DNA from: an uncultured Rickettsiales bacterium
Lineage (GTDB): Bacteria; Pseudomonadota; Alphaproteobacteria; Rickettsiales; UBA8987
Assembly (NCBI GenBank): GCA_964588995.1
Contig: CAZPQM010000002.1
Span: forward strand, 155,020-219,019
Direction of reading: 5' to 3'
DNA: 64,000 bases
Positions 32,770 to 46,248 of the stretch are shown piece after piece. The notes under the pieces are model-generated. The model was not told the DNA's origin. It did no database searches and was given only the letters and a program-made list of their open reading frames with translations. Each line of letters opens with the position of its first letter. Positions within the stretch are counted from its first letter, which is position 1. A program made the translations under genes and the position numbers.

Positions 32770-33321
32770 ATGGATCAGCAGGGGAATTTTCCGGGGTGGC
32801 ACGCAACGACCATCCTGTGTGTAAAAAAGGACGGTAAAACCGTCATCGGCGGCGACGGACAGGTCTCGGTCGGTCATACGATCATGAAAGGAACGGCGAC
32901 CAAGATTCGTAGCCTGACAGATGGCTCTATTAAGGCCGGTTTTGCCGGTGCGACCGCCGATGCGTTTACGCTGTTTGAACGGTTGGAGTCCAAGCTAGAA
33001 GTGCATCCTGGGCAGCTAAAGCGTGCCTGTGTGGAACTGGCGAAGGATTGGCGTACGGATCGTTACTTGCGTCGCCTCGAAGCGATGATGATTGTAGCGG
33101 ATAAAGAGCAGATTCTGGTGTTGACCGGAACGGGCGATGTGCTGGAGCCGGAGGATGATATTGCCGCGATTGGCTCCGGGGGTAATTATGCGCTGGCAGC
33201 TGCAAAAGCGTTACGGGAAAATAGCGATATGAGCGCAAAAGAAATTGTCGAAAAAGCGATGAAGATTGCAGCCGATATCTGCGTGTATACGAACCATAAT
33301 GTGATAATAGAGGAAGTTTAA
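32770..33321 (+). CDS. hslV: ATP-dependent protease subunit HslV
   Basis: [23 protein letters not shown]...[11 protein letters not shown]; the N-terminal Thr nucleophile context is present. Confidence 0.93.
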
Positions 33322-33340: not shown

Positions 33341-33715
33341 GTGTCAGGTTCCAGTATAAAAAGTTATCAAGATTTACATGTGTGGCAAAAAGCAATTGAG
33401 TTAGTAGAATTGGTCTATCAACAAACAGAAAATTTTCCCAAACACCAGCCTTATAGTTTGGGGCAGCAAATCGAGCGATCTGCTGTATCGGTTCCTTCTA
33501 ATATTGCTGAAGGTCGGACCAGACATAGTGTTAGAGATTTTGTATACCATCTAAATATCGCTCGTGGTTCTTTAGCTGAGTTAGAAACGCAAATCATTAT
33601 CGCAGAAAGATTACGATTTATTGATGCTGATCCCACGAAAGCCATATTTGCTCGTACAAGTGAGGTGGGCAAAATGTTAAATGGTTTAAAGAACTCCCTC
33701 AAACCCGAAACCTGA
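33341..33715 (+). CDS. four-helix-bundle protein (23S rRNA intervening-sequence protein family)
   Basis: [18 protein letters not shown]...[36 protein letters not shown] is the typical signature. GTG start. It is visibly AT-rich relative to hslV and hslU. Confidence 0.8.
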
Positions 33716-33731
33716 CAACTGGAACCTAATT

Positions 33732-35048
33732 ATGACCGAATATACCAACATGACACCACGCGAAATTGTAGCTGAGCTGGACCGGCATATTGTCGGGCAG
33801 GGGGATGCGAAGAAAGCAGTTGCCATTGCACTGCGTAACCGCTACCGCCGGATGCAGGTCGATGAGCCGATGCGCGATGAGATAGTGCCGAAGAATATTC
33901 TCATGGTCGGTCCAACCGGTGTGGGTAAAACGGAGATAGCACGCCGCCTCGCTAAGCTGGCAGACGCACCGTTTGTGAAGATTGAAGCAACCAAGTTTAC
34001 CGAAGTTGGGTATGTGGGCCGCGATGTGGACTCCATCGTGCGGGATTTGATGGAGCATGCGGTTACGCTCGTACGCGAAAGAATGCGTAAAGAAGTTATT
34101 GAGAAGGCAGAGTTAAATGCGGAAGAACGGGTGCTGGATGCGCTCGTAGGTGAAGCGGCGAGTGCAGATACGCGGCAGAAGTTTCGCAAAAAACTGCGCG
34201 AGGGCGAGCTGAATGATAAGCAAATAGATATTCAGGTGGCGGATACCAAGCCGATGGGGCTGGATTTTGCCGATATTCCCGGAATGCCCGGCGGTCAGAT
34301 GGGGATGATCAATCTGAATGACATGATCGGTAAAGCCATGGGTAAAACCAAAACCAAGAAAGTTTCGGTCGAAGAAGCCTATGATGTGCTGATGGCGGAG
34401 GAAAGTGACAAGCTGCTGGATGAAGATAAGGTCGTTGCCGAAGCCCTTCAATCGGTCGAGAATGATGGTATCGTTTTCCTAGACGAAATTGATAAGATCA
34501 CCTCGCGGCAGGATGTGCGTGGCGGCGATGTGAATAGAGAGGGTGTGCAACGTGATTTACTCCCGCTGATTGAAGGAACCGTCATTTCCACGAAATATGG
34601 CGCGGTGAAGACCGATCATATTCTCTTTATTGCGAGCGGTGCGTTCCATCTTGCCAAGCCATCCGATTTATTGCCTGAATTGCAGGGGCGGTTGCCGATT
34701 CGCGTTTCGCTGGATGCGCTGACGGAGGAGGATTTAATCCGCATTTTGAAAGAGCCGGAATCCTCGCTTACAAAGCAGTATGAAGCGCTGATGGCGACGG
34801 AGGGCGTAACCGTAGAGTTCACAGAAGGTGGTATCAAGCAGATTGCGAAGATCGCGACGGAAGTGAACTCGAACGTCGAAAATATCGGCGCACGGCGTTT
34901 GCATACGATTATGGAGAAGCTGCTTGAGGAGTTGAGCTATGCAGCGGGCGATACGGCAGATGAGCATGTTACGGTTGATGCGGCTTATGTCGATCAGCAT
35001 CTCGAAGATTTGACCAAAGAACAGGACTTAAGCAAATTTATCCTGTAA
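33732..35048 (+). CDS. hslU: ATP-dependent protease ATPase subunit HslU
   Basis: [49 protein letters not shown]. Confidence 0.95.
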
Positions 35049-35061
35049 CGTTTACCTGACT

Positions 35062-36147
35062 TTAGCTGGCTTGAAGCTGCCGCATCGGACAGGCACGGCA
35101 TTCATGCGTTGCCGGGCATATAGGGCTGTCATGGCTGCATCGTATGGAGCCATTTTCCTGACGGACCGCCGCCTGAACTAATTCGGCTAGACCGGCAATA
35201 AAATACGGATGATCCCCGGGGGTGGGTACACGGTAATATCCCGGTACATTATGCTCATTAGCGATCTCTTTGAATTCTACGTCGAGTTCTACCAGCGTTT
35301 CCAGATGCTCGCTAACGAAGGCGATTGGGATGACAATCAGCGGTACGCCATCCTTCCCTGCCTGCTCAATTTCATGGTCGGTATACGGCGTTAGCCATTC
35401 CAGCGGACCGACGCGGCTTTGATAGGTTACTTTCCAGTCTTCCAGTTGGAAGTCCAGTGCTTCAACTACGTTACTTGCGGTCAGTTCAATCTGCACGGGG
35501 TAGGGGTCGCCTTTAGACTTAACGGTTTTCTTAGGCAGCCCGTGCGCGGAGAATAATACGCGGGGCGTTAGTTCAGGATGTTCCTTTTTGGCTTGTGCGT
35601 GGTATTTGCTTAGCAGGTCGGCAACGGATTTAACGAACCCTGTATTATCAGGGTAACAGCAGATGGTTTGCGTTGTTGAGGTTAAGCCGTGCCTGCCGGC
35701 GTATTTATGCCATTCGACAATGCTGGACTCACTGGTGGTTGTGGAATAATGCGGATAGAGTGGCAACAGAACAATTTTGTCTGGAGCAAATTCTTTCACC
35801 TGCTTCACGACCTCTTCAGTCATCGGGTGCCAATAACGCATGCACGGGAAGACTTCGATTTCATATTCTTTTTCCAGTAGGGCGGTGAGCGCTTTACCTT
35901 GTGATATCGTGTTATCGAGTATGGGAGACTTGCCTCCCATTTCCTCGTATAAGGGAATAACCCCCTTATAACGCCGTGAGGAGATTAGTCGTGCGAGCAT
36001 CTCACGAAACGGGTTGGGAAGCCCAATAATCCGCTTGTCTGCAAACAGGTTTTTCAAAAACGGGCGCACAGCATTTGTCTTGTCAGGGCCACCTAGGTTG
36101 AATAACACAACCGCAAGGCGAGGTTTGCTGCCATTTGAATTGACCAT
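35062..36147 (-). CDS. hemH: ferrochelatase (Cys-rich C-terminus)
   Basis: LAVVLFNLGGPD...FLKNLFADKRII, 361 aa. The C-terminal CSHDSPICPATHECRACP suggests an Fe-S-type ferrochelatase. Confidence 0.9.
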   Translation of the reverse strand: MVNSNGSKPRLAVVLFNLGGPDKTNAVRPFLKNLFADKRIIGLPNPFREMLARLISSRRYKGVIPLYEEMGGKSPILDNTISQGKALTALLEKEYEIEVFPCMRYWHPMTEEVVKQVKEFAPDKIVLLPLYPHYSTTTSESSIVEWHKYAGRHGLTSTTQTICCYPDNTGFVKSVADLLSKYHAQAKKEHPELTPRVLFSAHGLPKKTVKSKGDPYPVQIELTASNVVEALDFQLEDWKVTYQSRVGPLEWLTPYTDHEIEQAGKDGVPLIVIPIAFVSEHLETLVELDVEFKEIANEHNVPGYYRVPTPGDHPYFIAGLAELVQAAVRQENGSIRCSHDSPICPATHECRACPMRQLQAS

Positions 36148-36214
36148 TGTTAAGTCCTCACGGATAGTAGTTGAATAGAATAGGCAAAATGCTTATACTT
36201 TTGGTGCGCTATTT

Positions 36215-37174
36215 ATGAACAAAAGTTACATGGAAAATTTATTTCTTTATCACCTGCCGAAGTCAAGTAAGGTGTTTCTTCCTGAGTGGGATGCCCATTT
36301 GCGTTGTGATCATTTTACCATTGAAACCTGCATGCGTTATATTGTTATGGCTAAGGAGCCGCTCGCGCATGCGGCCTGTCGCTATGCGATGGAAGAACGG
36401 CAGGGGCGTGAGGCCTATCAATTTCTGCTGGAACTTGCCTGCGGTTTGCTGAGTAACATGCCGGGTGAGCCGGAAATTTTTGGACAGATTAAGCAGGCCT
36501 GGCAGCAAAAGCGTTCTGAGAATGAAGCGCTCAAAGAAGCGTTTGATCCTATCATGCGTTCTTTATTTCAGGATACAAAACGGATCCGCTCTAATCACTT
36601 ACAGGGCGTCACTGGTGCCTCCTATTTCAGCGCGACGGAAAAGCTGATTAATTTGAAGCGTGACCATAATGTGCTTATTATCGGTGCTGGTCAATTTGGC
36701 ACGATGCTGGCGCACAATATTGCAAAACGGACGGACGGGCTGTTTATTTGCAATCGTTCGGAGAAAGCGCTTGAGCCGTTGGTTGAAAAGCTCAATGATA
36801 AACTGACCATTTTACCTTTCTCAGCCGAGATAGAGCGCGCCATTTCCGATATGGATCATGTATTGATTGCGCTGCCATCCTTTGCCGATCAGGCAATCAA
36901 TGATGCTATTATTAATGGATGGCAGTCGAAGCAGGAATATACGGGGCATCTCGTGCATTACTGTGAATATATTGATGAAGCATCGCGCTGGCGGAAGCTG
37001 CCGAATAGCTTTGCGCTGGAGGATGTTCTCTGCCTGCAATCCGTTCAAACAGAAAAGCGCGAAAAGGCGTTTGAGGCGGCGTATCAGGCCGTTAAAGAAT
37101 ATTCGCACAAACGGTATCTACAACCTGTCGGTATAGCCTGCAATCATTATGCATCTCAAACTGGGAACGCGTAA
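36215..37174 (+). CDS. hemA: short, divergent glutamyl-tRNA reductase-like protein
   Basis: IETCMRY (compare the TCNR active site), LACGLLSNMPGEPEIFGQIKQAW (compare GLxSxxxGExQIxGQVK), Rossmann VLIIGAGQFGTMLA. It is only 319 aa and sits at the head of the hemC-hemL-hemE cluster. Confidence 0.6.
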   Translation: MNKSYMENLFLYHLPKSSKVFLPEWDAHLRCDHFTIETCMRYIVMAKEPLAHAACRYAMEERQGREAYQFLLELACGLLSNMPGEPEIFGQIKQAWQQKRSENEALKEAFDPIMRSLFQDTKRIRSNHLQGVTGASYFSATEKLINLKRDHNVLIIGAGQFGTMLAHNIAKRTDGLFICNRSEKALEPLVEKLNDKLTILPFSAEIERAISDMDHVLIALPSFADQAINDAIINGWQSKQEYTGHLVHYCEYIDEASRWRKLPNSFALEDVLCLQSVQTEKREKAFEAAYQAVKEYSHKRYLQPVGIACNHYASQTGNA

Positions 37175-38117
37175 ATCTGCGCTGGCGCTTGCCCAAAGTC
37201 AATGGGTGGCCGATCAGCTAGAAGCGCTTAGTAATGACATTACAGCAGAACTTATTGGCATCGAAACACAGGCCGATGAGTCGCGAGGTGGCGTTTATGC
37301 AACGAAGCCGCTTTCGCAGCTAGATGGTAAAAACTTTTTCATTAAAGAGTTGGATGACGCGCTTCTTTCCGGGATCACGCATCTTTCTGTTCATTCGCTT
37401 AAGGATCTAAGCCTTGAACGCCCTGATGCGATTGAACTGGCTGCTATTCCAAAGCGAGAGGACGCGCGGGATGTGGTAATTCTATCCGCTAAGGGAAAAG
37501 CTAAGTTAAGAGCAGGTAAGGCGCTCTCTTTGGGTACATCATCCCCTCGACGGATAGAAAATATCCCTCCTTTGTTGCGTGCTGAATTTGGCTCGCACAT
37601 TGAGGTGAAGGAAATCAGAGGTAATATCACCACACGTATTGGGCGGTTGCATGATTTGGGGAAGCGTTATCTGGACGGTGTTGCATTGGCCTTAGCCGGT
37701 ATAAAACGCCTGTATGCTTCTGAGCAATATCGTAATCAACTGACACCAAAGCTGGCAGGGGTGTTCTTTTTACCTCTGCCGCTGGCAAGTAACCCAACGG
37801 CACCGGGACAGGGTGCGCTCGCAATCGAATGTTTAAAAGAAAATCAGGATATTCTGCTGACACTACAACGCCTGCACTCATTATCTGCGGCGGAAGATAT
37901 TGCTAAAGAGCGTGCTATTCTGGCGAAATATGGCGGCGGGTGTCATCAAGCGTTTGGTGCAAGCCGTATCCGGGGTGGAAAAGCAGGCGAATACGCGTTA
38001 TATATTCGCGGGCGTACCGAATCCGGCCAGATTTTGGACGAGGTGCATGGCAGCTTGCAGGCAACGGAAGATAGCTTGCAGATTTTTGATAGTTTACAAG
38101 CATTAATGTCATCCTGA
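37149..38117 (+). CDS. hemC: hydroxymethylbilane synthase (porphobilinogen deaminase)
   Basis: LKLGTRKSALALAQ..., SVHSLKDL, LGTSSPRR, RGNITTR, APGQGALAIE, GGGCHQAFG. It overlaps hemA by 26 nt. Confidence 0.85.
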   Translation: MHLKLGTRKSALALAQSQWVADQLEALSNDITAELIGIETQADESRGGVYATKPLSQLDGKNFFIKELDDALLSGITHLSVHSLKDLSLERPDAIELAAIPKREDARDVVILSAKGKAKLRAGKALSLGTSSPRRIENIPPLLRAEFGSHIEVKEIRGNITTRIGRLHDLGKRYLDGVALALAGIKRLYASEQYRNQLTPKLAGVFFLPLPLASNPTAPGQGALAIECLKENQDILLTLQRLHSLSAAEDIAKERAILAKYGGGCHQAFGASRIRGGKAGEYALYIRGRTESGQILDEVHGSLQATEDSLQIFDSLQALMSS

Positions 38118-38172
38118 CCGTAGTGAAGGGCTTCTGTCTATTATAGATTCTTTGCTGACGTTCAGAATGACG
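38108..38172. repeat. family-1 palindromic repeat unit supplying the hemC stop codon
   Basis: GTCATCCTGACCGTAGTGAAGGGCTTCT...AGATTCTTTGCTGACGTTCAGAATGACG. The hemC TGA is at 38115-38117. Confidence 0.7.
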
Positions 38173-38198
38173 CTTACAATGAAGAAACGGGTTTTTCC

Positions 38199-39521
38199 AT
38201 GACCAGCACACAGCATTCTGAAGCATTATTTGAACGGGCGAAGCGCGTTACACCGGGTGGAGTGCATTCTCCTGTTCGCGCTTTTAAGTCCGTAGGCGGA
38301 ATACCGCGTTTTATTACGGAGGCAAAGGGTGCTTGTCTCACCGATGCGGATGGCAATCAACTGGTGGATTATTGCATGTCTTGGGGGCCGCTGATTTTCG
38401 GCCATCAGGATGAGGATGTTGCTGGCGCGATTCATGATGCGATGGACAAAGGGTGGACGTTTGGCACGGCTTCCCATTATCCGCTAGAACTCGCGGAATA
38501 TATTACTGAGCGCATAAAACATGTTGAAAAGATTCGTTTTGTAAATTCGGGAACGGAGGCGGTGATGTCGGCCATTCGTGTGGCGCGTGGAACGACTGAG
38601 CGGAACAAAATCGTGAAATTTGCCGGCTGTTATCATGGCCATGTGGATAGTCTGCTAATTCAGGCAGGTTCCGGGGTTGCGGAAATGGCGAAGCCGGATA
38701 GTGCCGGTGTGACTGAAGGAACAGCGGCAGATACGATCGTTTGTCCGCTTAATGATGAGGCCGCACTCAACCAGATTTTTGAAATACATGGTCGAGAAAT
38801 AGCCGCGGTAATAATGGAGCCATTGCCTGCGAATTTTGGCTTACTGATACAGCGGGATGAATATCTACAGTTTGTTCGAGAAATCACACAACGCTATGGC
38901 AGTTTGCTTATTTTTGATGAGGTGATGTCCGGATTTCGCATCGGCTTTGGCGGCATGGCGGAGCGAACCGGGATTGCACCGGATCTGGTAACGTACGGCA
39001 AAGTGATTGGGGGAGGTTTTCCGGTCGGAGCGTTTGGTGGCCGTGCTGATCTTATGGATGCCGTTGCGCCAGTTGGGCCAGTCTATCAGGCGGGTACATT
39101 GTCGGGCAATCCGGTGGCCATGCGGGCTGGGTTTGCTACCCTTAAAAAACTATATGAGCAGTCACCCTATGAGCAGCTGGATTCGATTACTTCGAAGCTA
39201 GCGAACGATCTGCAGCAGGTCGCAAAGTCCAAAGGCTTCGCGCTTTCCGTACAGCATGTCGGTTCAAAATTCTGGCTGATTCCTGATGAAGTGCAAACGG
39301 AAGATGGCATGGTGAGGGATGTAAAGTCACTTCCGGCTGAAGCGATGAAACGTTTTGCGCATATTTTCCATGGGCTACTCAATCGCGGATATTATCTTGC
39401 GCCGAGTGGCTTCGAGGTGGGTTTTATGGCGACTGTGCACACTGAAGAAGTTAACGCCGGCTTGGTAGATGCCTTTGAACAGGTGTTAGAGGAAATGACA
39501 GAGGAAAGGAAAGCCTCGTGA
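38199..39521 (+). CDS. hemL: glutamate-1-semialdehyde 2,1-aminomutase
   Basis: SEALFERAKRVTPGGVHSPVRAFKSVGG..., FDEVMSGFR, TYGKVIGGGFP. Confidence 0.93.
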   Translation: MTSTQHSEALFERAKRVTPGGVHSPVRAFKSVGGIPRFITEAKGACLTDADGNQLVDYCMSWGPLIFGHQDEDVAGAIHDAMDKGWTFGTASHYPLELAEYITERIKHVEKIRFVNSGTEAVMSAIRVARGTTERNKIVKFAGCYHGHVDSLLIQAGSGVAEMAKPDSAGVTEGTAADTIVCPLNDEAALNQIFEIHGREIAAVIMEPLPANFGLLIQRDEYLQFVREITQRYGSLLIFDEVMSGFRIGFGGMAERTGIAPDLVTYGKVIGGGFPVGAFGGRADLMDAVAPVGPVYQAGTLSGNPVAMRAGFATLKKLYEQSPYEQLDSITSKLANDLQQVAKSKGFALSVQHVGSKFWLIPDEVQTEDGMVRDVKSLPAEAMKRFAHIFHGLLNRGYYLAPSGFEVGFMATVHTEEVNAGLVDAFEQVLEEMTEERKAS

Positions 39522-40564
39522 ATCTATTTGATAAGACGTTGGCAGGACAAAATGACACAGGTGTTCCGCCGATCTGGTTTATGCGGCAGGCTGGTCGCTA
39601 CCACTCGCACTATCAGCAGCTGCGAAAAGACTATAGCTTTGTTGAATTGTGCCAGAATCCCGACGTTTCAGCCGAAGCAGCAATGGGACCGATACGGGAT
39701 TTTGACTTTGATGCGGCAATTTTATTTTCCGATATTCTGTTTCCAATCGAGGCGCTTGGTATTCCGTTGAGTTTTGCTCCAGGGCCTCAATTTGGACGTC
39801 TGCTTCGAGAACCGGAAGACTTAAAACATTATCATCAGCCCGAAGATGCGCAGTCATTCTTTTGGTTTCAGCGAGTGGCGTTGGATAAATTGCGTGAGCA
39901 GTTGCCGAATAGCAAAGGCCTTATCGGCTTTGTTGGTGGGCTGGCGACGTTGTATGCGTTCGCTGTGGAAGGCTCAACCAAGGGGGATTTGTCTTCGGCG
40001 ATGAAGGGGCTGGATGATGGCCGTTTTGAAGGATTGATGGACATGCTGCTGCCAGTGTTGGTGGACAATATGAGTGTGCAGGCGGAAGCGAATATTAGCT
40101 GCATAGCGATTCTCGATTCCGGATTGGGACATTTCCCGTATGACTGGGTAGTGAAAAGTTATCTCAACGTGCTGCGGGAACTCCTTACGCGTTTTAAGTA
40201 CCGTTTTCCCGAGACGAAAATCCTCTATTATAGCTTAGGCGTGCGGGCGGACTATTTTGAACATCTGATCGATCTTCCGATTGATGCACTTGGGATTGAC
40301 CACCATAAAGAATTGCCTGAATTATTTGAACGCTATGGTGAGCGGTTCATATTGCAGGGTAACATTCCGCCGGAATGGATCAGCCTTCCTGTTGAGGAAT
40401 ATGCCGGTAAATTGCGCGGTTTTTTGAATCTAATGGAGGTATTGCCTGAGCACTACCGCAATCGATGGATATGCGGATTAGGGCATGGTATTTTGCCAAC
40501 GGCGAAAGAGGAAAACGTGTATATGAGCATTAAAACGGTACGGGAACGGATTGGTGGAAAGTAA
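39518..40564 (+). CDS. hemE: uroporphyrinogen decarboxylase
   Basis: PPIWFMRQAGRYHSHY, AILFSDIL. The GTG start overlaps the hemL stop. Confidence 0.88.
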   Translation: MNLFDKTLAGQNDTGVPPIWFMRQAGRYHSHYQQLRKDYSFVELCQNPDVSAEAAMGPIRDFDFDAAILFSDILFPIEALGIPLSFAPGPQFGRLLREPEDLKHYHQPEDAQSFFWFQRVALDKLREQLPNSKGLIGFVGGLATLYAFAVEGSTKGDLSSAMKGLDDGRFEGLMDMLLPVLVDNMSVQAEANISCIAILDSGLGHFPYDWVVKSYLNVLRELLTRFKYRFPETKILYYSLGVRADYFEHLIDLPIDALGIDHHKELPELFERYGERFILQGNIPPEWISLPVEEYAGKLRGFLNLMEVLPEHYRNRWICGLGHGILPTAKEENVYMSIKTVRERIGGK

Positions 40565-40626
40565 TTAGTGTTTATAGCTTACTCCAGAGTGAGCTTTTCT
40601 AGCCGGAGAGAAATCTATAGGTTGAT

Positions 40627-41997
40627 ATGGTAAATTCGGATCTTATCAAAAAATATAATGTGGCCGGTCCGCGCTATACGAGCTACCCCACCGTGCCATA
40701 CTGGCAGGATGTGCCTGAAGAATCGGCGTGGCTAAAAAGCATTGATGAGGCGCTTGCAGAAAGTGAGGCAAAAGGGGCGGGGGCCGCGCTTTATTTGCAT
40801 ATTCCCTTTTGCGAACAACTGTGCACTTTTTGCGGCTGTACGACGCGGATTACCAAAAAGCATGAGCGTGCCAACCCGTATATCCAGACAGTATTAAAGG
40901 AATGGCAAATCTATGTGGATTATTTGCAGCGCGAAGACGGTATCCCTATTTCGGAAGTGCATTTAGGCGGTGGCACCCCTACCTGGCTTTCAGCTGAAGA
41001 GCTGCATACATTGCTTTCCGGAATTTTTAAACAGGTGCGTCTTACCGAGGATATTGAAATGTCCTTTGAGGCGGATCCCAGGGTCACGACGGAAGCGCAT
41101 ATTAGCGTGCTCGCTGAGCTTGGTTTCAAGCGCATCAGCTATGGCGTGCAGGATTTTGATCCGAAGGTGCAGGAGATTGTAAACCGAGTACAGTCCGTAG
41201 AGCAAGTTGAGCAATTGACTTATACTGCGCGTAAGCATGGTTATCAATCGGTAAATTTCGATCTTATTTATGGCCTACCGTTACAGACCAAAACGTCCGT
41301 AAGGGACACTATAGAGGAAGTGCGGCGGATGCAGCCGGATCGAATAGCATTTTATTCTTATGCGCATGTGCCGTGGATTAAACCCTCGCAACGTAAATAT
41401 ACTGAGGCGGATTTGCCTTCCGGTGATGAAAAGCGTGCGTTGTATGAGCTTGGGCGTGAGATGCTTGAAGCAAATGGCTATCTTGAAATCGGTATGGACC
41501 ATTTCGCGCTTGAGGAGGATGGGCTTTCTCGTGCGATTCAGCGTAAGACCCTGCATCGGAATTTTATGGGCTATATGCCGAAATATGTCCATCCTATGAT
41601 TAGTTTGGGTATGTCAGCCATTGGGGATTCCTGGCAAATGTTTATGCAGAATATCAAAGAGTTGGAAGCCTATCAGGACACAGTAAATCAAGGTCGGTTG
41701 CCGATTCATCGTGGACATATACTGACGGAAGAAGATCAGGTGCTCCGTAAGCATGTTTTGAATATCATGACGCGCGGGGTTACGGCATGGAGCCACGCGG
41801 CGGACTATACGGACTATTTAGAGCAGGTGCCGGCGCTATTGCAGGAGCCAGCCAATGATGATCTGGTCTCGCTTGAAGAACGAAGGGTACGGATCACTCA
41901 GAAAGGGCTGCCGTTTCTTCGTAATATCTGTATGGCATTTGATGCGAGACTAAACCGGGATAAACCAGATACGCAATTATTCAGCAGCACGATATAA
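40627..41997 (+). CDS. hemN: oxygen-independent coproporphyrinogen III oxidase (radical SAM)
   Basis: GPRYTSYPT, YLHIPFCEQLCTFCGC (CX3CX2C), GGGTPT, 456 aa. Confidence 0.9.
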   Translation: MVNSDLIKKYNVAGPRYTSYPTVPYWQDVPEESAWLKSIDEALAESEAKGAGAALYLHIPFCEQLCTFCGCTTRITKKHERANPYIQTVLKEWQIYVDYLQREDGIPISEVHLGGGTPTWLSAEELHTLLSGIFKQVRLTEDIEMSFEADPRVTTEAHISVLAELGFKRISYGVQDFDPKVQEIVNRVQSVEQVEQLTYTARKHGYQSVNFDLIYGLPLQTKTSVRDTIEEVRRMQPDRIAFYSYAHVPWIKPSQRKYTEADLPSGDEKRALYELGREMLEANGYLEIGMDHFALEEDGLSRAIQRKTLHRNFMGYMPKYVHPMISLGMSAIGDSWQMFMQNIKELEAYQDTVNQGRLPIHRGHILTEEDQVLRKHVLNIMTRGVTAWSHAADYTDYLEQVPALLQEPANDDLVSLEERRVRITQKGLPFLRNICMAFDARLNRDKPDTQLFSSTI

Positions 41998-42047
41998 ATC
42001 TGCGGTTTTGATTGGCTAAACACGCCTGTCAAGAGTAGTATCGCGAT

Positions 42048-43313
42048 ATGCTGGGTACGATCAACCATTCTGAAAAGCATGCCGCCATTGTGGGTGGAGG
42101 TATTTCCGGCTTGCTCATAGCCTATCGGCTTTCGCAACTAGGATTTGCCATTGAGCTGTTTGAAGCGCAGGATCGGCCGGGGGGGCTGATCCAAACGAAA
42201 GTCACTCCTTACGGTATTGCTGAAACGGCTGCGCATTCCTTCCGTGCAAGTGAGGAAGTGCTGAATTTATGCGAGCAGCTAGGTGTGGCTATAGAACCGC
42301 TGCAGGAAAGTGCGAAGAAGAAATATATATTAAGAGAGGGTAAGTGGCGTAAAATGCCATTAACCCCGTTCGAGGTGGTCGGGTTGTTGTGTCGCATGTT
42401 CACCCAAAAAGGGCTTGCCGAACCGTATAAACCGCTTTCTGACGTAGTGGCGCATCATATGGGGCATGGTGCGTTGCATCATCTCGTTACGCCTATGACG
42501 CTGGGTATTTATGGTACAACCCCAGAACACATTATCGTGCCGGCAGCATTTAAGATTTTCGATGTTCCTGAAAGCAAAACCCTGCTTTCGCACTTGCTGC
42601 ATGAGCGTAAGCGGAAGAAAGGAGCAAAGCGTCCAATTATGTCCGCACCCAGAGCTGGTATGCAGATGATTATCAACAAGTTGATTGAGGCATTAGAAAG
42701 CGATAGTAATGTAGATATGCATCTGAATAAGCGTTTGGACCGTTTGCCTGACAGTCCGAATCGCATTCTATGCTGTGAAGCGCCGCAATCGGCTGCACTC
42801 TTAAAGTCAGAAGCGCCTGCTTTAACAAAATTGTTATCGCATGTGCGCTATGTCCCGCTCATTACTGCTACAGTTTTTGTTAAACAAGATGCAATTGGAT
42901 GTAAAGAGCGTGGATTAGGCATCCTGATACCACCGGACGAGAAGTACGAAATTATGGGGGTTTTGTTTAACAGCTACTCATTTCCGGGCCGTACGTTAAA
43001 GGCGGATGAGGAATCTTTTACGGTTATTACGGGGGGAACAGTTTATCCACACTTAATGGAAGAAAGTGATGACGTTCTATTGGATGTAGTTCAACGGAGT
43101 ATCACGAGTCTCCTACAGCTGAGTAAAAAGCCCTTTCATATTGAACTTACACGTTGGGAGCGGGCCATTCCGCTTTACGACATGAAATTGGTGGATACCT
43201 GGAAGGAGGCAAATCTAAGTTGGTGTGCGAAACCGGGCAATGTATTGTTTGGGAATTATACGGGAGAAGTAGCCATCAAAGGACTAATTGAGACTGTGGC
43301 CAAGATTAAGTAA
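42048..43313 (+). CDS. hemY: FAD-dependent protoporphyrinogen oxidase (HemY-type)
   Basis: AAIVGGGISGLLIAYRL...LFEAQDRPGGLIQT dinucleotide fold, 421 aa, last gene of the heme cluster. Confidence 0.75.
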   Translation: MLGTINHSEKHAAIVGGGISGLLIAYRLSQLGFAIELFEAQDRPGGLIQTKVTPYGIAETAAHSFRASEEVLNLCEQLGVAIEPLQESAKKKYILREGKWRKMPLTPFEVVGLLCRMFTQKGLAEPYKPLSDVVAHHMGHGALHHLVTPMTLGIYGTTPEHIIVPAAFKIFDVPESKTLLSHLLHERKRKKGAKRPIMSAPRAGMQMIINKLIEALESDSNVDMHLNKRLDRLPDSPNRILCCEAPQSAALLKSEAPALTKLLSHVRYVPLITATVFVKQDAIGCKERGLGILIPPDEKYEIMGVLFNSYSFPGRTLKADEESFTVITGGTVYPHLMEESDDVLLDVVQRSITSLLQLSKKPFHIELTRWERAIPLYDMKLVDTWKEANLSWCAKPGNVLFGNYTGEVAIKGLIETVAKIK

Positions 43314-43320
43314 CCAGAAG

Positions 43321-43812
43321 TTACTCGCTCGTGGTGCGCAGTATATCCCGCACCTCCACCATCTCTTCCATCAACCGGTCGAGGCGGTGCTTAAGTTCAG
43401 GATTAGCAGTTTTTTCAGCCTGCGCGGCGGCTTTTTCCATCGCTTCGGCTTCCTCAAACAAGCTGGTCTGTATCTGACCAATTCCCGCTTTCTTTCTATC
43501 CTTCAGAAATTTCTGTGCGCCTTTGATCGTATAGCCTTTTTCATAAAGTAGCGACTTGATCTCTTTGATCACCTCGATATCCGCAGGGCGGTAATAGCGG
43601 TGCCCGCCGCGTCGTTTATGCGGCTTGATTTGCGTGAATTTACTTTCCCAGAAGCGAAGTACATGCGGAGAGACACCAAGCTCCGAGGCTACTTCGCCTA
43701 TGGTACGAAAGGCGGAAGACGATTTGCGTTTAGTCACTATATGAATAACCCGTTCACTGTTGTTAACTACCAAAACAGGGTAGGTTTTAACCAGTGATTG
43801 TTCGTTAATCAA
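43321..43812 (-). CDS. MerR family transcriptional regulator
   Basis: [31 protein letters not shown]; conserved position after ihfA. Confidence 0.85.
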
Positions 43813-44098
43813 GGGCTTCGTTGATATTTTTTACTAAAATATTTGAGGCGTGGAAAGTAACGACCCGGCGTGCCGTAATCGGGATTTCTTCTTTGGTTTT
43901 CGGATTGCGGCCCATACGGGCTTTTTTATCACGGGTTTCGAACGTGCCGAAGGAGGAAAGTTTTACCGCTTCTCCATTTTCCAGCGCTTTTATAATCTCC
44001 TCGATGGTGGCATCTACCAGATCCGAACTTTCCGAAAAAGAGAGACCTAACTCAGCGTAGAGTTTGTCCGCAAGATCAGCGCGTGTCAGTGTTTTCAT
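43805..44098 (-). CDS. ihfA: integration host factor subunit alpha
   Basis: [17 protein letters not shown]...[36 protein letters not shown]. Confidence 0.93.
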
Positions 44099-44212: not shown

Positions 44213-45169
44213 TCAGAGACGCAGTAAGCAGGATCCCCAGGTAAGGCCGCCACCGATCGCCTGCAGGGCGAGCAGGTTACCCGGCTGAATTCTGCCGTCC
44301 TGAAAGGCCGTATCCATCGCAAGCGGTATAGAAGCTGCCGACGTGTTAGCGTGTTGCGCTACCGTTGAAATGAGTTTGTCCTTCGGGAGCTTCAGTTTTT
44401 TCATGGTCGCATCCAAAATACGCTGGTTTGCCTGATGCGGAATGACCCAGTCGATCTGGTCGGCGTTCAGCTTGTTATAGGCCAGGGCCTCTTCCGTAAC
44501 GGCGGCGAGTTTCTGCACCGCATGCTTAAACACATCCTGCCCCTGCATGCGAATATGTCCGATACGGCCATCGGTCGATACACCGCCATCGACATAGAGG
44601 AGGTCGCGGGTGGAGCCGTCTGAATAGAGATGGGTCGATAAGATGCCTTGTTTGCCCTCTTTCTCGGCGGAAAAGACGCAGGCGCCCGCTCCATCGCCGA
44701 AAAGAATGCAGGTGCTGCGGTCCGTCCAATCCAGCAGGGCGGAGAGTTTATCCGCGCCGATAACCAGAATATGGCGATATTGCCCGCTTTGGGCGAAATG
44801 GTGAGCGGTGGCAAGCGCGTAAATAAAGCCGGTACAAACGGCCTGAAGGTCAAACGCAGCGGCGCGGTTATTACCTAGAAGAGCCTGAATTTTGGAGGCG
44901 GTTGACGGGAAGGTATTATCGGGCGTCGTGGTTGCAACGAGGATCAGGTCGAGCTCGGTTGCATCTATTCCGGCGCGCTGCAGCGCCTGTTTCGCTGCGT
45001 GCGTAGCCATATCCGCCGTACTTTCTTTGTCTGCTAAATGGCGTTGCGTAATTCCGGTCCGGGTGCGAATCCATTCATCGCTCGTATCTACGGTTTTGGC
45101 GAGCTCTGCATTGCTCACCACGTTGGGTGGGAGGTAGGAGCCTGTGCCGCGTAACACGAGCTGAACCAT
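44213..45169 (-). CDS. fabH: 3-oxoacyl-ACP synthase III
   Basis: AVCTGFIYAL (Cys), PHQANQRI, GGGLTWGS. Confidence 0.93.
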   Translation of the reverse strand: MVQLVLRGTGSYLPPNVVSNAELAKTVDTSDEWIRTRTGITQRHLADKESTADMATHAAKQALQRAGIDATELDLILVATTTPDNTFPSTASKIQALLGNNRAAAFDLQAVCTGFIYALATAHHFAQSGQYRHILVIGADKLSALLDWTDRSTCILFGDGAGACVFSAEKEGKQGILSTHLYSDGSTRDLLYVDGGVSTDGRIGHIRMQGQDVFKHAVQKLAAVTEEALAYNKLNADQIDWVIPHQANQRILDATMKKLKLPKDKLISTVAQHANTSAASIPLAMDTAFQDGRIQPGNLLALQAIGGGLTWGSCLLRL

Positions 45170-46248
45170 TAAGATACTGCCTTTTCCGGTAGGGCAAGCG
45201 GCACGGTAAATTCGTCAGGAGGAACGTGGCCGGAGTCGATCATTTCCTGAATAATCTGATCGTTCACTTTTTCCTTGGCGAGCGCAAGTGCCATTAAAAT
45301 CGCATTGGCGTTGCCTTGCGCATCGCTGCCACCGTGGCTTTTGATGATAATGCCGTTGATCCCCAGAAACATCGCACCGTTATAATTGCGGGGGTCCATT
45401 TGCGTTTTGAGCGAGTTGAGTGCCGAGTAGCTGGTCAATTTAGCAATACGGTTGAGTATACCTTTATTGAACGCGGCTTTCAAACGGCCGGTATACATTT
45501 GCGCGGTGCCTTCCAGCGTTTTGAGCGCGATATTGCCGGTAAAGCCATCCGTTACGATGACATCGACCTCGCCGTTACAAATATCGTTACCTTCGACATG
45601 GCCGATGAAGTTGATCGGTAACTCGCTCTCTTTGATCAGTGCGGCAGCCTGCCGCACCGTATCATGGCCTTTAATATCTTCCGAGCCGACATTGAGGAGC
45701 CCCACCGACGGGTCGTCTTTCTTCAGCAAAACACGAGCATAGGCATGCCCCATAATCGCGAAATCGAACAGGTTTTCTGCGCTGGCCGCTACATTAGCTC
45801 CAATATCCAGCATGACGGAGCTACCTTGCTTCTGTGGCATCAGCCCGCAAATGGCAGGGCGTTCAATCGCCGGGAGCATGCCGAGCAGTATTTTTGACAT
45901 CGCCATTAAGGCGCCGGTATTACCGCTGGATACAGCCGCCTGCGCAGCTCCGGCTCGTACGGATTGAATCGCCTGCCCCATACTGGTGTTACGCCCGCGG
46001 CGAATCACGGCAGACGGTTTTTCGTCCACGGCAACGACATCCTCGACGTTAATAACAGTGGAAATACGCTTCAGGTTCGGCGTATGCTCGAGCATTTTCT
46101 TGACCGTACTTTCGCGCCCGTAGAGCAGGAAATGGCAGTCAGAGCATTGCTTAGCAGCAATTTCGCCGCCGGCTATGACGCTTTCCGGTCCCTGATCACC
46201 GCCCATAACATCTATGGCGATGATGCGTTTTGAATCAATAGCGCTCAC
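45169..46248 (-). CDS. plsX: phosphate acyltransferase PlsX
   Basis: IAIDVMGGDQGP..., SSGNTGALMA, GFTGNIALKT. Confidence 0.93.
   Translation of the reverse strand: MSAIDSKRIIAIDVMGGDQGPESVIAGGEIAAKQCSDCHFLLYGRESTVKKMLEHTPNLKRISTVINVEDVVAVDEKPSAVIRRGRNTSMGQAIQSVRAGAAQAAVSSGNTGALMAMSKILLGMLPAIERPAICGLMPQKQGSSVMLDIGANVAASAENLFDFAIMGHAYARVLLKKDDPSVGLLNVGSEDIKGHDTVRQAAALIKESELPINFIGHVEGNDICNGEVDVIVTDGFTGNIALKTLEGTAQMYTGRLKAAFNKGILNRIAKLTSYSALNSLKTQMDPRNYNGAMFLGINGIIIKSHGGSDAQGNANAILMALALAKEKVNDQIIQEMIDSGHVPPDEFTVPLALPEKAVS

Follow-up and report, generated by a model that had tools for sequence, protein, structure and literature searches.

The C4 (Shemin) route, which begins with 5-aminolevulinate (ALA) synthase (ALAS), is stated as the rule for Alphaproteobacteria and the C5 route as the rule for all other bacteria, with exceptions unmentioned (PMC11480375, PMC8145841), and glutamyl-tRNA reductase (GluTR) is annotated in no alphaproteobacterium according to PMC6154995. 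In the canonical C5 route, GluTR (HemA/GtrR; TIGR01035, structures 1GPJ and 4N7R) is joined by glutamate-1-semialdehyde 2,1-aminomutase (HemL; TIGR00713). Here we describe a heme locus at 35062-43313 of a 64-kb window, the whole stretch of DNA analysed, from the genome of an uncultured Rickettsiales bacterium (assembly GCA_964588995.1; G000 below, with the window at G000:C2:155020-219019). In this locus the ferrochelatase gene hemH lies divergent from six plus-strand genes, which encode a short GluTR, HemC, HemL, HemE, HemN and HemY. G000 is without ALAS and has the C5 route instead, and we consider it likely that the six-gene operon (36215-43313) was acquired horizontally long ago, replacing native functions.

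The window GluTR resembles canonical GluTRs in its catalytic domain with the cysteine nucleophile motif TCxR, its Rossmann NADPH domain and a predicted fold nearest to 1GPJ and 4N7R, and it is accompanied, as in the canonical route, by a full-scoring HemL. However, it is about 100 residues shorter, lacks the PF00745 domain and the N-terminal GxNHKTAP, and shows TC(L/M)R in place of TCNR and Phe in place of the His of RHL. The C4 route of the host's own order leads to the same end product through the same mid-pathway, and hemH and hemB of G000 are of the order's own type, whereas ALAS, native hemC, native hemE, hemF and hemJ are absent; GluTR with HemL, foreign versions of HemC and HemE, and also HemN and HemY would be their functional substitutes. 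A Steroidobacteraceae-type operon (GCA_035605115.1, contig DATNHF010000059; GCA_037200665.1) has the same GluTR subfamily, the same pairing of short GluTR with hemC, sister sequences of HemC, HemE and HemL, and a HemN up to 58% identical. Compared with it, the window lacks a histidine kinase-response regulator (HK-RR) pair and 100-200 C-terminal residues of HemC, has hemL and hemY inside the operon, and differs in GC content (48% versus 65-66%), with a GluTR identity of only 28-30%. Lastly, a C5 cluster in another member of the host's family (f1), genome G017, is likewise divergent from hemH in a genome that lost ALAS; unlike the window locus, it has an independent origin and a GluTR that exceeds the TIGR01035 cut-off.

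Heme genes of the host and its order

The original prediction, made from the window alone, had described seven adjacent heme genes with a divergent hemH, overlaps of 26 nt between hemA and hemC and of 4 nt between hemL and hemE, and a position between the hslVU and ihfA-merR blocks. Gene coordinates and profile matches bear out each of these points, and add fabH and plsX to the downstream block. The heme genes and their intergenic region are as follows.

35062-36147, minus strand: hemH, ferrochelatase, divergent from the operon (TIGR00109, 283 bits)
36148-36214, no strand: divergent intergenic region of 67 bp, presumed promoter region of hemH and the operon
36215-37174, plus strand: short GluTR, 319 aa (PF05201, 48.2 bits; PF01488, 31.8 bits; TIGR01035, 61.5 bits)
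37149-38117, plus strand: hemC, hydroxymethylbilane synthase, 322 aa (TIGR00212, 192 bits)
38199-39521, plus strand: hemL, glutamate-1-semialdehyde 2,1-aminomutase (TIGR00713, 529.1 bits against a cut-off of 527.3)
39518-40564, plus strand: hemE, uroporphyrinogen decarboxylase (PF01208, 211 bits; TIGR01464, 209 bits, under the cut-off of 303)
40627-41997, plus strand: hemN, oxygen-independent coproporphyrinogen III oxidase (TIGR00538, 423 bits)
42048-43313, plus strand: hemY-type protoporphyrinogen oxidase (TIGR00562, 139.5 bits, over the cut-off)

Apart from the two overlaps, the plus-strand genes are separated by 50-81 nt, and the six are probably co-transcribed. The genome itself (2.06 Mb in 53 contigs, with an estimated completeness of 100% and contamination of 0.1%) contains no ALAS over the cut-off, the best TIGR01821 match being a BioF/Kbl-like protein at 233.6 bits against 338.6. 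Together with a HemL over the TIGR00713 equivalog cut-off, this means that C5 replaces C4 in G000. Searches of G000 returned no second GluTR-like gene and no match to HemJ or HemF. The hemB and hemD genes, which had been reported as absent from the cluster, are found off the window's contig at G000:C1:248612-249607 and G000:C5:68467-69144, respectively. The late enzymes of the protoporphyrin-dependent branch, HemE, CgdH/HemN, PgoX/HemY and PpfC/HemH, are all encoded (PF01208, TIGR00538, TIGR00562, TIGR00109), and the chemistry would be that of the ordinary C5 route followed by the protoporphyrin branch.

The relatives searched comprised 40 genomes, 17 from family f1 and the rest from 23 further families of the order. 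Counting G000, ALAS exceeds the cut-off in 37 of the 41 genomes (the exceptions are G000, G014, G017 and G026), and in the control set Caulobacter alone passes it; the host order is therefore ALAS-using and alphaproteobacterial, as the original prediction had supposed from synteny, and the closest named HemL belongs to a metagenome-assembled genome (MAG) labelled 'Rickettsiales bacterium'. In ALAS-using relatives there are native hemE-hemH(-hemJ) operons, in which hemH immediately follows native hemE (for example G002:C10:99535-101979); HemJ is present in all three relatives checked (G011, G002 and G009), and HemF in G011 and G009. The HemH of G000 is 44-54% identical to that of most order mates and is placed within the clade that they form (SH-aLRT, the Shimodaira-Hasegawa-like approximate likelihood ratio test, 96), while its HemB is 44-60% identical to theirs. 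Judged by these sequence comparisons, both genes are of the native type.

That a C5 pathway would be atypical of the class proved correct as to rarity, but not as to uniqueness. Among 400 other Alphaproteobacteria, evenly drawn, a true HemL (at least 520 bits) occurs in seven genomes (G505, G785, G533, G688, G800, G664 and G748), which belong to four families and are mostly 1.6-2.0 Mb in size. The C5 route recurs in small-genome alphaproteobacterial lineages, contrary to the stated C4 rule. One further case lies within family f1, where G017, also without ALAS, has hemH and hemJ on one strand and GluTR, hemC, hemE, hemF and hemL on the other (locus L193, G017:C58:1-6557). Its GluTR of 355 aa passes TIGR01035 at 257 bits, and its HemL, HemE, HemC and HemH all group with Bacteroidota. 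This cluster is a second, independent acquisition, from Bacteroidota, and the contrast between its GC content (44.8%) and that of the remainder of the contig (36.3%) suggests a more recent transfer.

A short family of putative glutamyl-tRNA reductases

The GluTR of the window is recognised by two Pfam domains and by no curated GluTR model. Its PF05201 match exceeds the gathering score of 27 but covers only profile positions 70-150 of 151, and its PF01488 match (threshold 24.3) includes GAGQFG at residues 157-162. The TIGR01035 match misses the curated equivalog cut-off of 209.55, and no NCBIfam GluTR model is reached. The 319-aa protein has no match to the PF00745 dimerisation domain and, in alignment, ends about 100 residues before canonical GluTRs. 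What it keeps in that alignment includes T38, C39, R41, GLxS, GExEIxGQxK, K122, R125, GAGQ and the paired N180 and R181. When the short family is aligned with canonical GluTRs, C39 and R41 do not vary and T38 hardly does; the motif reads ETC(M/L)R in the short family. The position of the RHL His is Phe70 when aligned to 1GPJ. The AlphaFold (AF2) model has a mean confidence (pLDDT) of 83.1, and GluTR structures take the first seven places among the Foldseek matches, with 1gpj at E = 3.1e-14 and the Arabidopsis structures 5yjl, 4n7r and 5che at 1e-11 to 1e-8 among them. TM-scores to GluTR structures are about 0.52-0.54, and the next folds, other Rossmann enzymes, have E-values of 5e-5 or worse.

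A profile search of 1.84 billion representatives (E <= 1e-30) placed the protein in a family that comprises, at 50% identity, at least 522 clusters. Of the 150 best, almost all are 280-350 aa long, the remainder being fragments or longer proteins, and ten sampled members score 39-65 bits against TIGR01035, all far under the cut-off. Members are labelled 'hypothetical protein' by NCBI, although JGI labels some of them glutamyl-tRNA reductase, and their NCBI taxa are Steroidobacteraceae, Steroidobacterales, 'Pseudomonadota' and 'Deltaproteobacteria' bacteria. Among the relatives of the host, only G026 has a strong match; in a 400-genome sample of the phylum the family appears in G000 only, a sample that says little on distribution.

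Does the short protein work as a GluTR? Its score far under every NCBIfam cut-off, the missing dimerisation domain and several canonical motifs, and the 'hypothetical protein' label of its kin would all fit a protein that is not a working GluTR, in which case ALA would come from uptake or another enzyme, and hemL would either be a relic or serve some other purpose. We regard this as unlikely. The catalytic Cys, GExEIxGQxK and the NADPH motif are invariant throughout the family, and the best fold matches are GluTR structures. The gene overlaps hemC by 26 nt and lies 1 kb from a full-scoring hemL, and hemC follows short GluTR in all contexts read (L204, L205, L207, L208, L213, L214, L215 and L216). 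Furthermore, two Steroidobacteraceae-type genomes, G444 and G445, have HemL and neither a canonical GluTR nor ALAS, so that the short GluTR is the one GluTR-like gene that either is found to carry. Such gene content supports a functional short GluTR, and enzymatic activity is what the conserved residues and the modelled fold would predict.

The HemC proteins beside short GluTR in other carriers are 424-517 aa long (L191:11508-12956, L204:10979-12466, L208:1149-2591, L213:10994-12547), with a C-terminal extension of about 100-200 residues that the 322-aa HemC of the window lacks. A scan of this extension for a HemD domain gave no Pfam match; the added residues may represent a cryptic uroporphyrinogen-III synthase or else a partner domain.

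Origin and age of the six plus-strand genes

By sequence, the six plus-strand genes are of a foreign type. HemC is 30-40% identical to its counterparts in 36 order mates, compared with 47-51% to G026 and 40-45% to Steroidobacteraceae-type operons. HemE is 25-34% identical to the native HemE of the order (G026 and G039 excepted), 52% to G026, 42-43% to the Steroidobacteraceae-type loci L213 and L215, and only 28-31% to the HemE of ordinary gamma-, beta- and zetaproteobacteria and Bacteroidota. HemL reaches 66% with G026 and 56-57% with Steroidobacteraceae-type sequences, and HemN reaches 58% with the Steroidobacteraceae MAG sequence in L213 and at most 43% in order mates. HemY has homologues in only two of the 40 relatives, G026 (42%) and G039 (28%).

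The trees agree with the identities. In the HemE tree, G000 and G026 (support 99/97) join L213, L215 and G039 in a 100/100 clade with a branch length of 1.67, apart from the native clade of the order (24 rows, 100/100). Forcing the order's HemE together was rejected by the approximately unbiased (AU) test (p = 1.8e-5), as was forcing the native HemE together with G000 and G026 (p = 6e-9). In the HemC tree, G000, G026, L204 and L208 stand beside L213, L215 and L205, split from all other HemC at 95/100, with an inner join of only 92/82. In the HemL tree, G000, L019 and G026 join G444 and G445 at 100/100. Across identity scans, trees and the AU test, GluTR, HemC, HemL, HemE and HemN are not vertically inherited orthologues of the order's genes. 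The earlier proposal that the whole pathway was acquired horizontally holds for the six plus-strand genes, but does not extend to hemH, which sits in the native clade, or to hemB.

The same gene set occurs in G026, a member of family f10, at 36-66% identity (GluTR 36-39%, HemY 42%, HemC 47-51%, HemE 52%, HemL 66%), distributed between two loci, one with short GluTR-hemC-hemB and the other with hemL-HK-RR-hemE-hemY. Steroidobacteraceae-type contigs are arranged as short GluTR-hemC-HK-RR-hemE-hemN, so the HK-RR-hemE unit recurs in G026. This HK-RR pair, located between hemC (or hemL) and hemE in the Steroidobacteraceae-type contigs and in G026 (L213:12544-14231, L215:12548-14210, L192:11705-13220) and absent from the window operon, suggests dedicated two-component control of heme synthesis in its carriers. 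The informative operon relatives surfaced only through tracing of the short GluTR family. A search for a named donor by HemL was unproductive: outside the alphaproteobacterial matches, the best 80 named loci are all at most 52% identical and are scattered over many phyla. Two other candidates, L048 (a 'Hyphomicrobiales' MAG) and L062 (Caldithrix), have hemC..hemL-hemE-hemN-hemH-hemY clusters, but these are only 26-38% identical and fall outside the clade, and neither was accepted as a donor.

The original prediction had also noted, by eye, that parts of the cluster looked AT-rich. The difference is real but small: the cluster has a GC content of 48.4% against 50.5% for the genome (standard deviation 2.6 in 8-kb windows), which puts it at the 18th percentile. 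In tetranucleotide distance it is ordinary, with 39% of genome windows deviating more, and GC content at third codon positions (GC3) in the six plus-strand genes is 0.43-0.50, the 8th-20th percentile of 848 long open reading frames (ORFs), none being an outlier singly; GC3 is 0.53-0.63 in the flanking genes, with plsX and fabH at 0.60-0.63. None of these measures carries the mark of a recent island. The mildness of the shift therefore points to an old transfer, and the composition fits either an old event or a source with a GC content like that of G026 (47-49%).

Several observations weigh against a horizontal origin of a working C5 operon. The composition shift, although consistent, is weak, no tRNA gene lies in 28000-50000 and no mobile-element gene at the borders (direct repeats were outside this search), so there is no independent island signature by which to date the event. 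In the GluTR tree, the alphaproteobacterial clade (SH-aLRT 93) is the sister group of all other short-family sequences and does not nest among them, so the donor and the direction of transfer can be proposed only tentatively; most members of this family come from metagenome contigs, and one member is labelled Deltaproteobacteria. The terminal branches of G000 HemC and HemE are long, about 1.0, and long-branch effects could be inflating their separation. HemY is without a counterpart in the Steroidobacteraceae loci read, and, against three canonical GluTRs aligned, the short GluTR has lost the N-terminal GxNHKTAP, the Asn of TCNR, the His of RHL and DLxVPRD.

The placement of the alphaproteobacterial short GluTRs in their own deep clade, not nested in gammaproteobacterial ones, would also suit vertical retention, in which the C5 operon is a pre-ALAS alphaproteobacterial relic kept in the G000 and G026 lineages only and lost elsewhere in the order after ALAS arose; the nearly ameliorated composition of the cluster and the true HemL in about 2% of sampled Alphaproteobacteria point the same way. 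Since HemC and HemE are needed in C4 and C5 alike, their replacement is the strongest argument against a retained ancestral C5 route: the copies in G000 are not orthologous to those of the order, and the AU test largely refutes retention. In addition, two complete parallel pathways would have to persist while at least 24 families radiated, with dozens of losses thereafter, and only one of the 17 other f1 genomes searched, G017, has C5 genes, which are of Bacteroidota type. We therefore hold retention to be very improbable. An assembly or binning artefact, joining a foreign heme cluster to an alphaproteobacterial contig, is conceivable for a 53-contig draft that is probably a MAG, but it has next to no chance of being correct. 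The contig measures 252 kb and has the cluster at its middle, where 13 nt separate it from native hslU and 7 nt from the native merR-ihfA-fabH-plsX block; a native-type hemH stands between hslU and the operon. Tetranucleotide usage in the cluster is typical of this genome, whose contamination estimate is very low and which would be short of five heme steps without the cluster. Concerning the route, a single gammaproteobacterium-like donor may have supplied one member of the order, from which the operon spread from alphaproteobacterium to alphaproteobacterium, G000 receiving it from a G026-like relative. G026 and the uncultured contigs L019, L204 and L208 are nearest to G000 in every tree (38-69% identity), the GC content of the G000 cluster is close to that of the G026 loci and under that of the G000 genome, and L208 has the same divergent hemH/short GluTR layout with a HemH fragment 64% identical to that of G000. 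However, the G000-G026 divergence of the operon is as deep as or deeper than that of HslU (70%), gene order differs, with the G026 genes split over two loci that include the HK-RR pair and hemB, and one old acquisition with later losses would also do. We give this route a real chance, though one that falls somewhat below even.

For the horizontal acquisition that we favour, the likely course of events is as follows. The stretch 36215-43313 would be one operon, and the lineage to which it belongs is marked by a short GluTR with hemC after it; among the named carriers of this lineage, Steroidobacteraceae-type Gammaproteobacteria are the best sampled. Long ago, an ancestor of the host would have gained the operon, either directly from a Steroidobacteraceae-type lineage or from within its own order, for example from the G026 lineage. 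It would have landed beside native hemH, where relatives have native hemE, and displaced five native functions (ALA synthase, hemC, hemE, hemF and hemJ). ALA would now be made from Glu-tRNA through short GluTR and HemL, and heme completed by a mosaic of foreign HemC, HemE, HemN and HemY with native HemB and HemH.

Flanking genes and apparent heme-pathway erosion in the family

The genes on both sides of the locus are native.

32770-33321, plus strand: hslV, upstream flank (TIGR03692, over the cut-off)
33732-35048, plus strand: hslU, upstream flank (TIGR00390, over the cut-off)
43321-43812, minus strand: merR-family gene, downstream flank (Pfam MerR_1)
43805-44098, minus strand: ihfA, downstream flank (Pfam Bac_DNA_binding)
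44213-45169, minus strand: fabH, downstream flank (Pfam ACP_syn_III)
45169-46248, minus strand: plsX, downstream flank (Pfam FA_synthesis)

The borders of the heme block are only 13 nt and 7 nt from these housekeeping genes, too close for mobile-element genes to fit between. Most order mates have an HslU 60-78% identical to that of G000, G011 being the closest (78%), and the his-gene synteny upstream of hslVU is kept in G002 and G007. Downstream of hslU nothing is conserved in the relatives, the closest relative G011 included, and an attempt to place the exact insertion site by synteny accordingly yielded no definable empty site. Between hslV and hslU lies a 124-aa ORF (33341-33715, plus strand) that is 43% identical to the ORF at the same position in G007. 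The 67-bp intergenic region at 36148-36214 is presumably the promoter region for both hemH and the operon. Two plus-strand sigma-70-like matches (36140-36168 and 36171-36199) occur there, a count at chance level for the region, as are the counts from the scan for promoters and terminators, and we infer its promoter role on that understanding.

Other members of family f1 have reduced sets of heme genes. Eleven genomes (G001, G003, G004, G006, G007, G008 and G012-G016) have no hemE or hemH match at E <= 1e-10, most of them retaining ALAS, hemB and hemC, and in G014, which is 99% complete, none of the heme genes looked for gave a match. From these gaps, f1 appears to be losing its heme pathway, and wholesale re-acquisition in the wake of such erosion may be a theme here. 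An ALAS-carrying relative has a 376-aa ORF (L194:3336-4466, G016:C86) with a marginal GlutR_N match of 26.6 bits and no NCBIfam match, possibly a GluTR-like gene that has decayed or diverged.

As a tentative proposal, to which we give slightly less than an even chance, the roughly 320-aa protein represents a functionally distinct class of GluTR that has no V-shaped dimerisation domain, has an altered active site (TC(L/M)R; RHL His to Phe) and is always paired with its own HemC lineage, in an operon that would repeatedly enable the wholesale rebuilding of eroded heme pathways, here overturning the C4 rule in an alphaproteobacterial order. A GluTR free of the dimerisation domain bears on the proposed GluTR-HemL channelling complex. 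This sizeable subfamily is missed by curated models, and automated annotation consequently makes its carriers, Steroidobacteraceae included, look like ALA auxotrophs; the Steroidobacteraceae MAGs G444 and G445, for example, would be called hemA-less. For the host, a single operon would have taken over an essential pathway at its first step and at four later ones, and the locus is a clean, well-supported counter-example to the C4 rule for Alphaproteobacteria.

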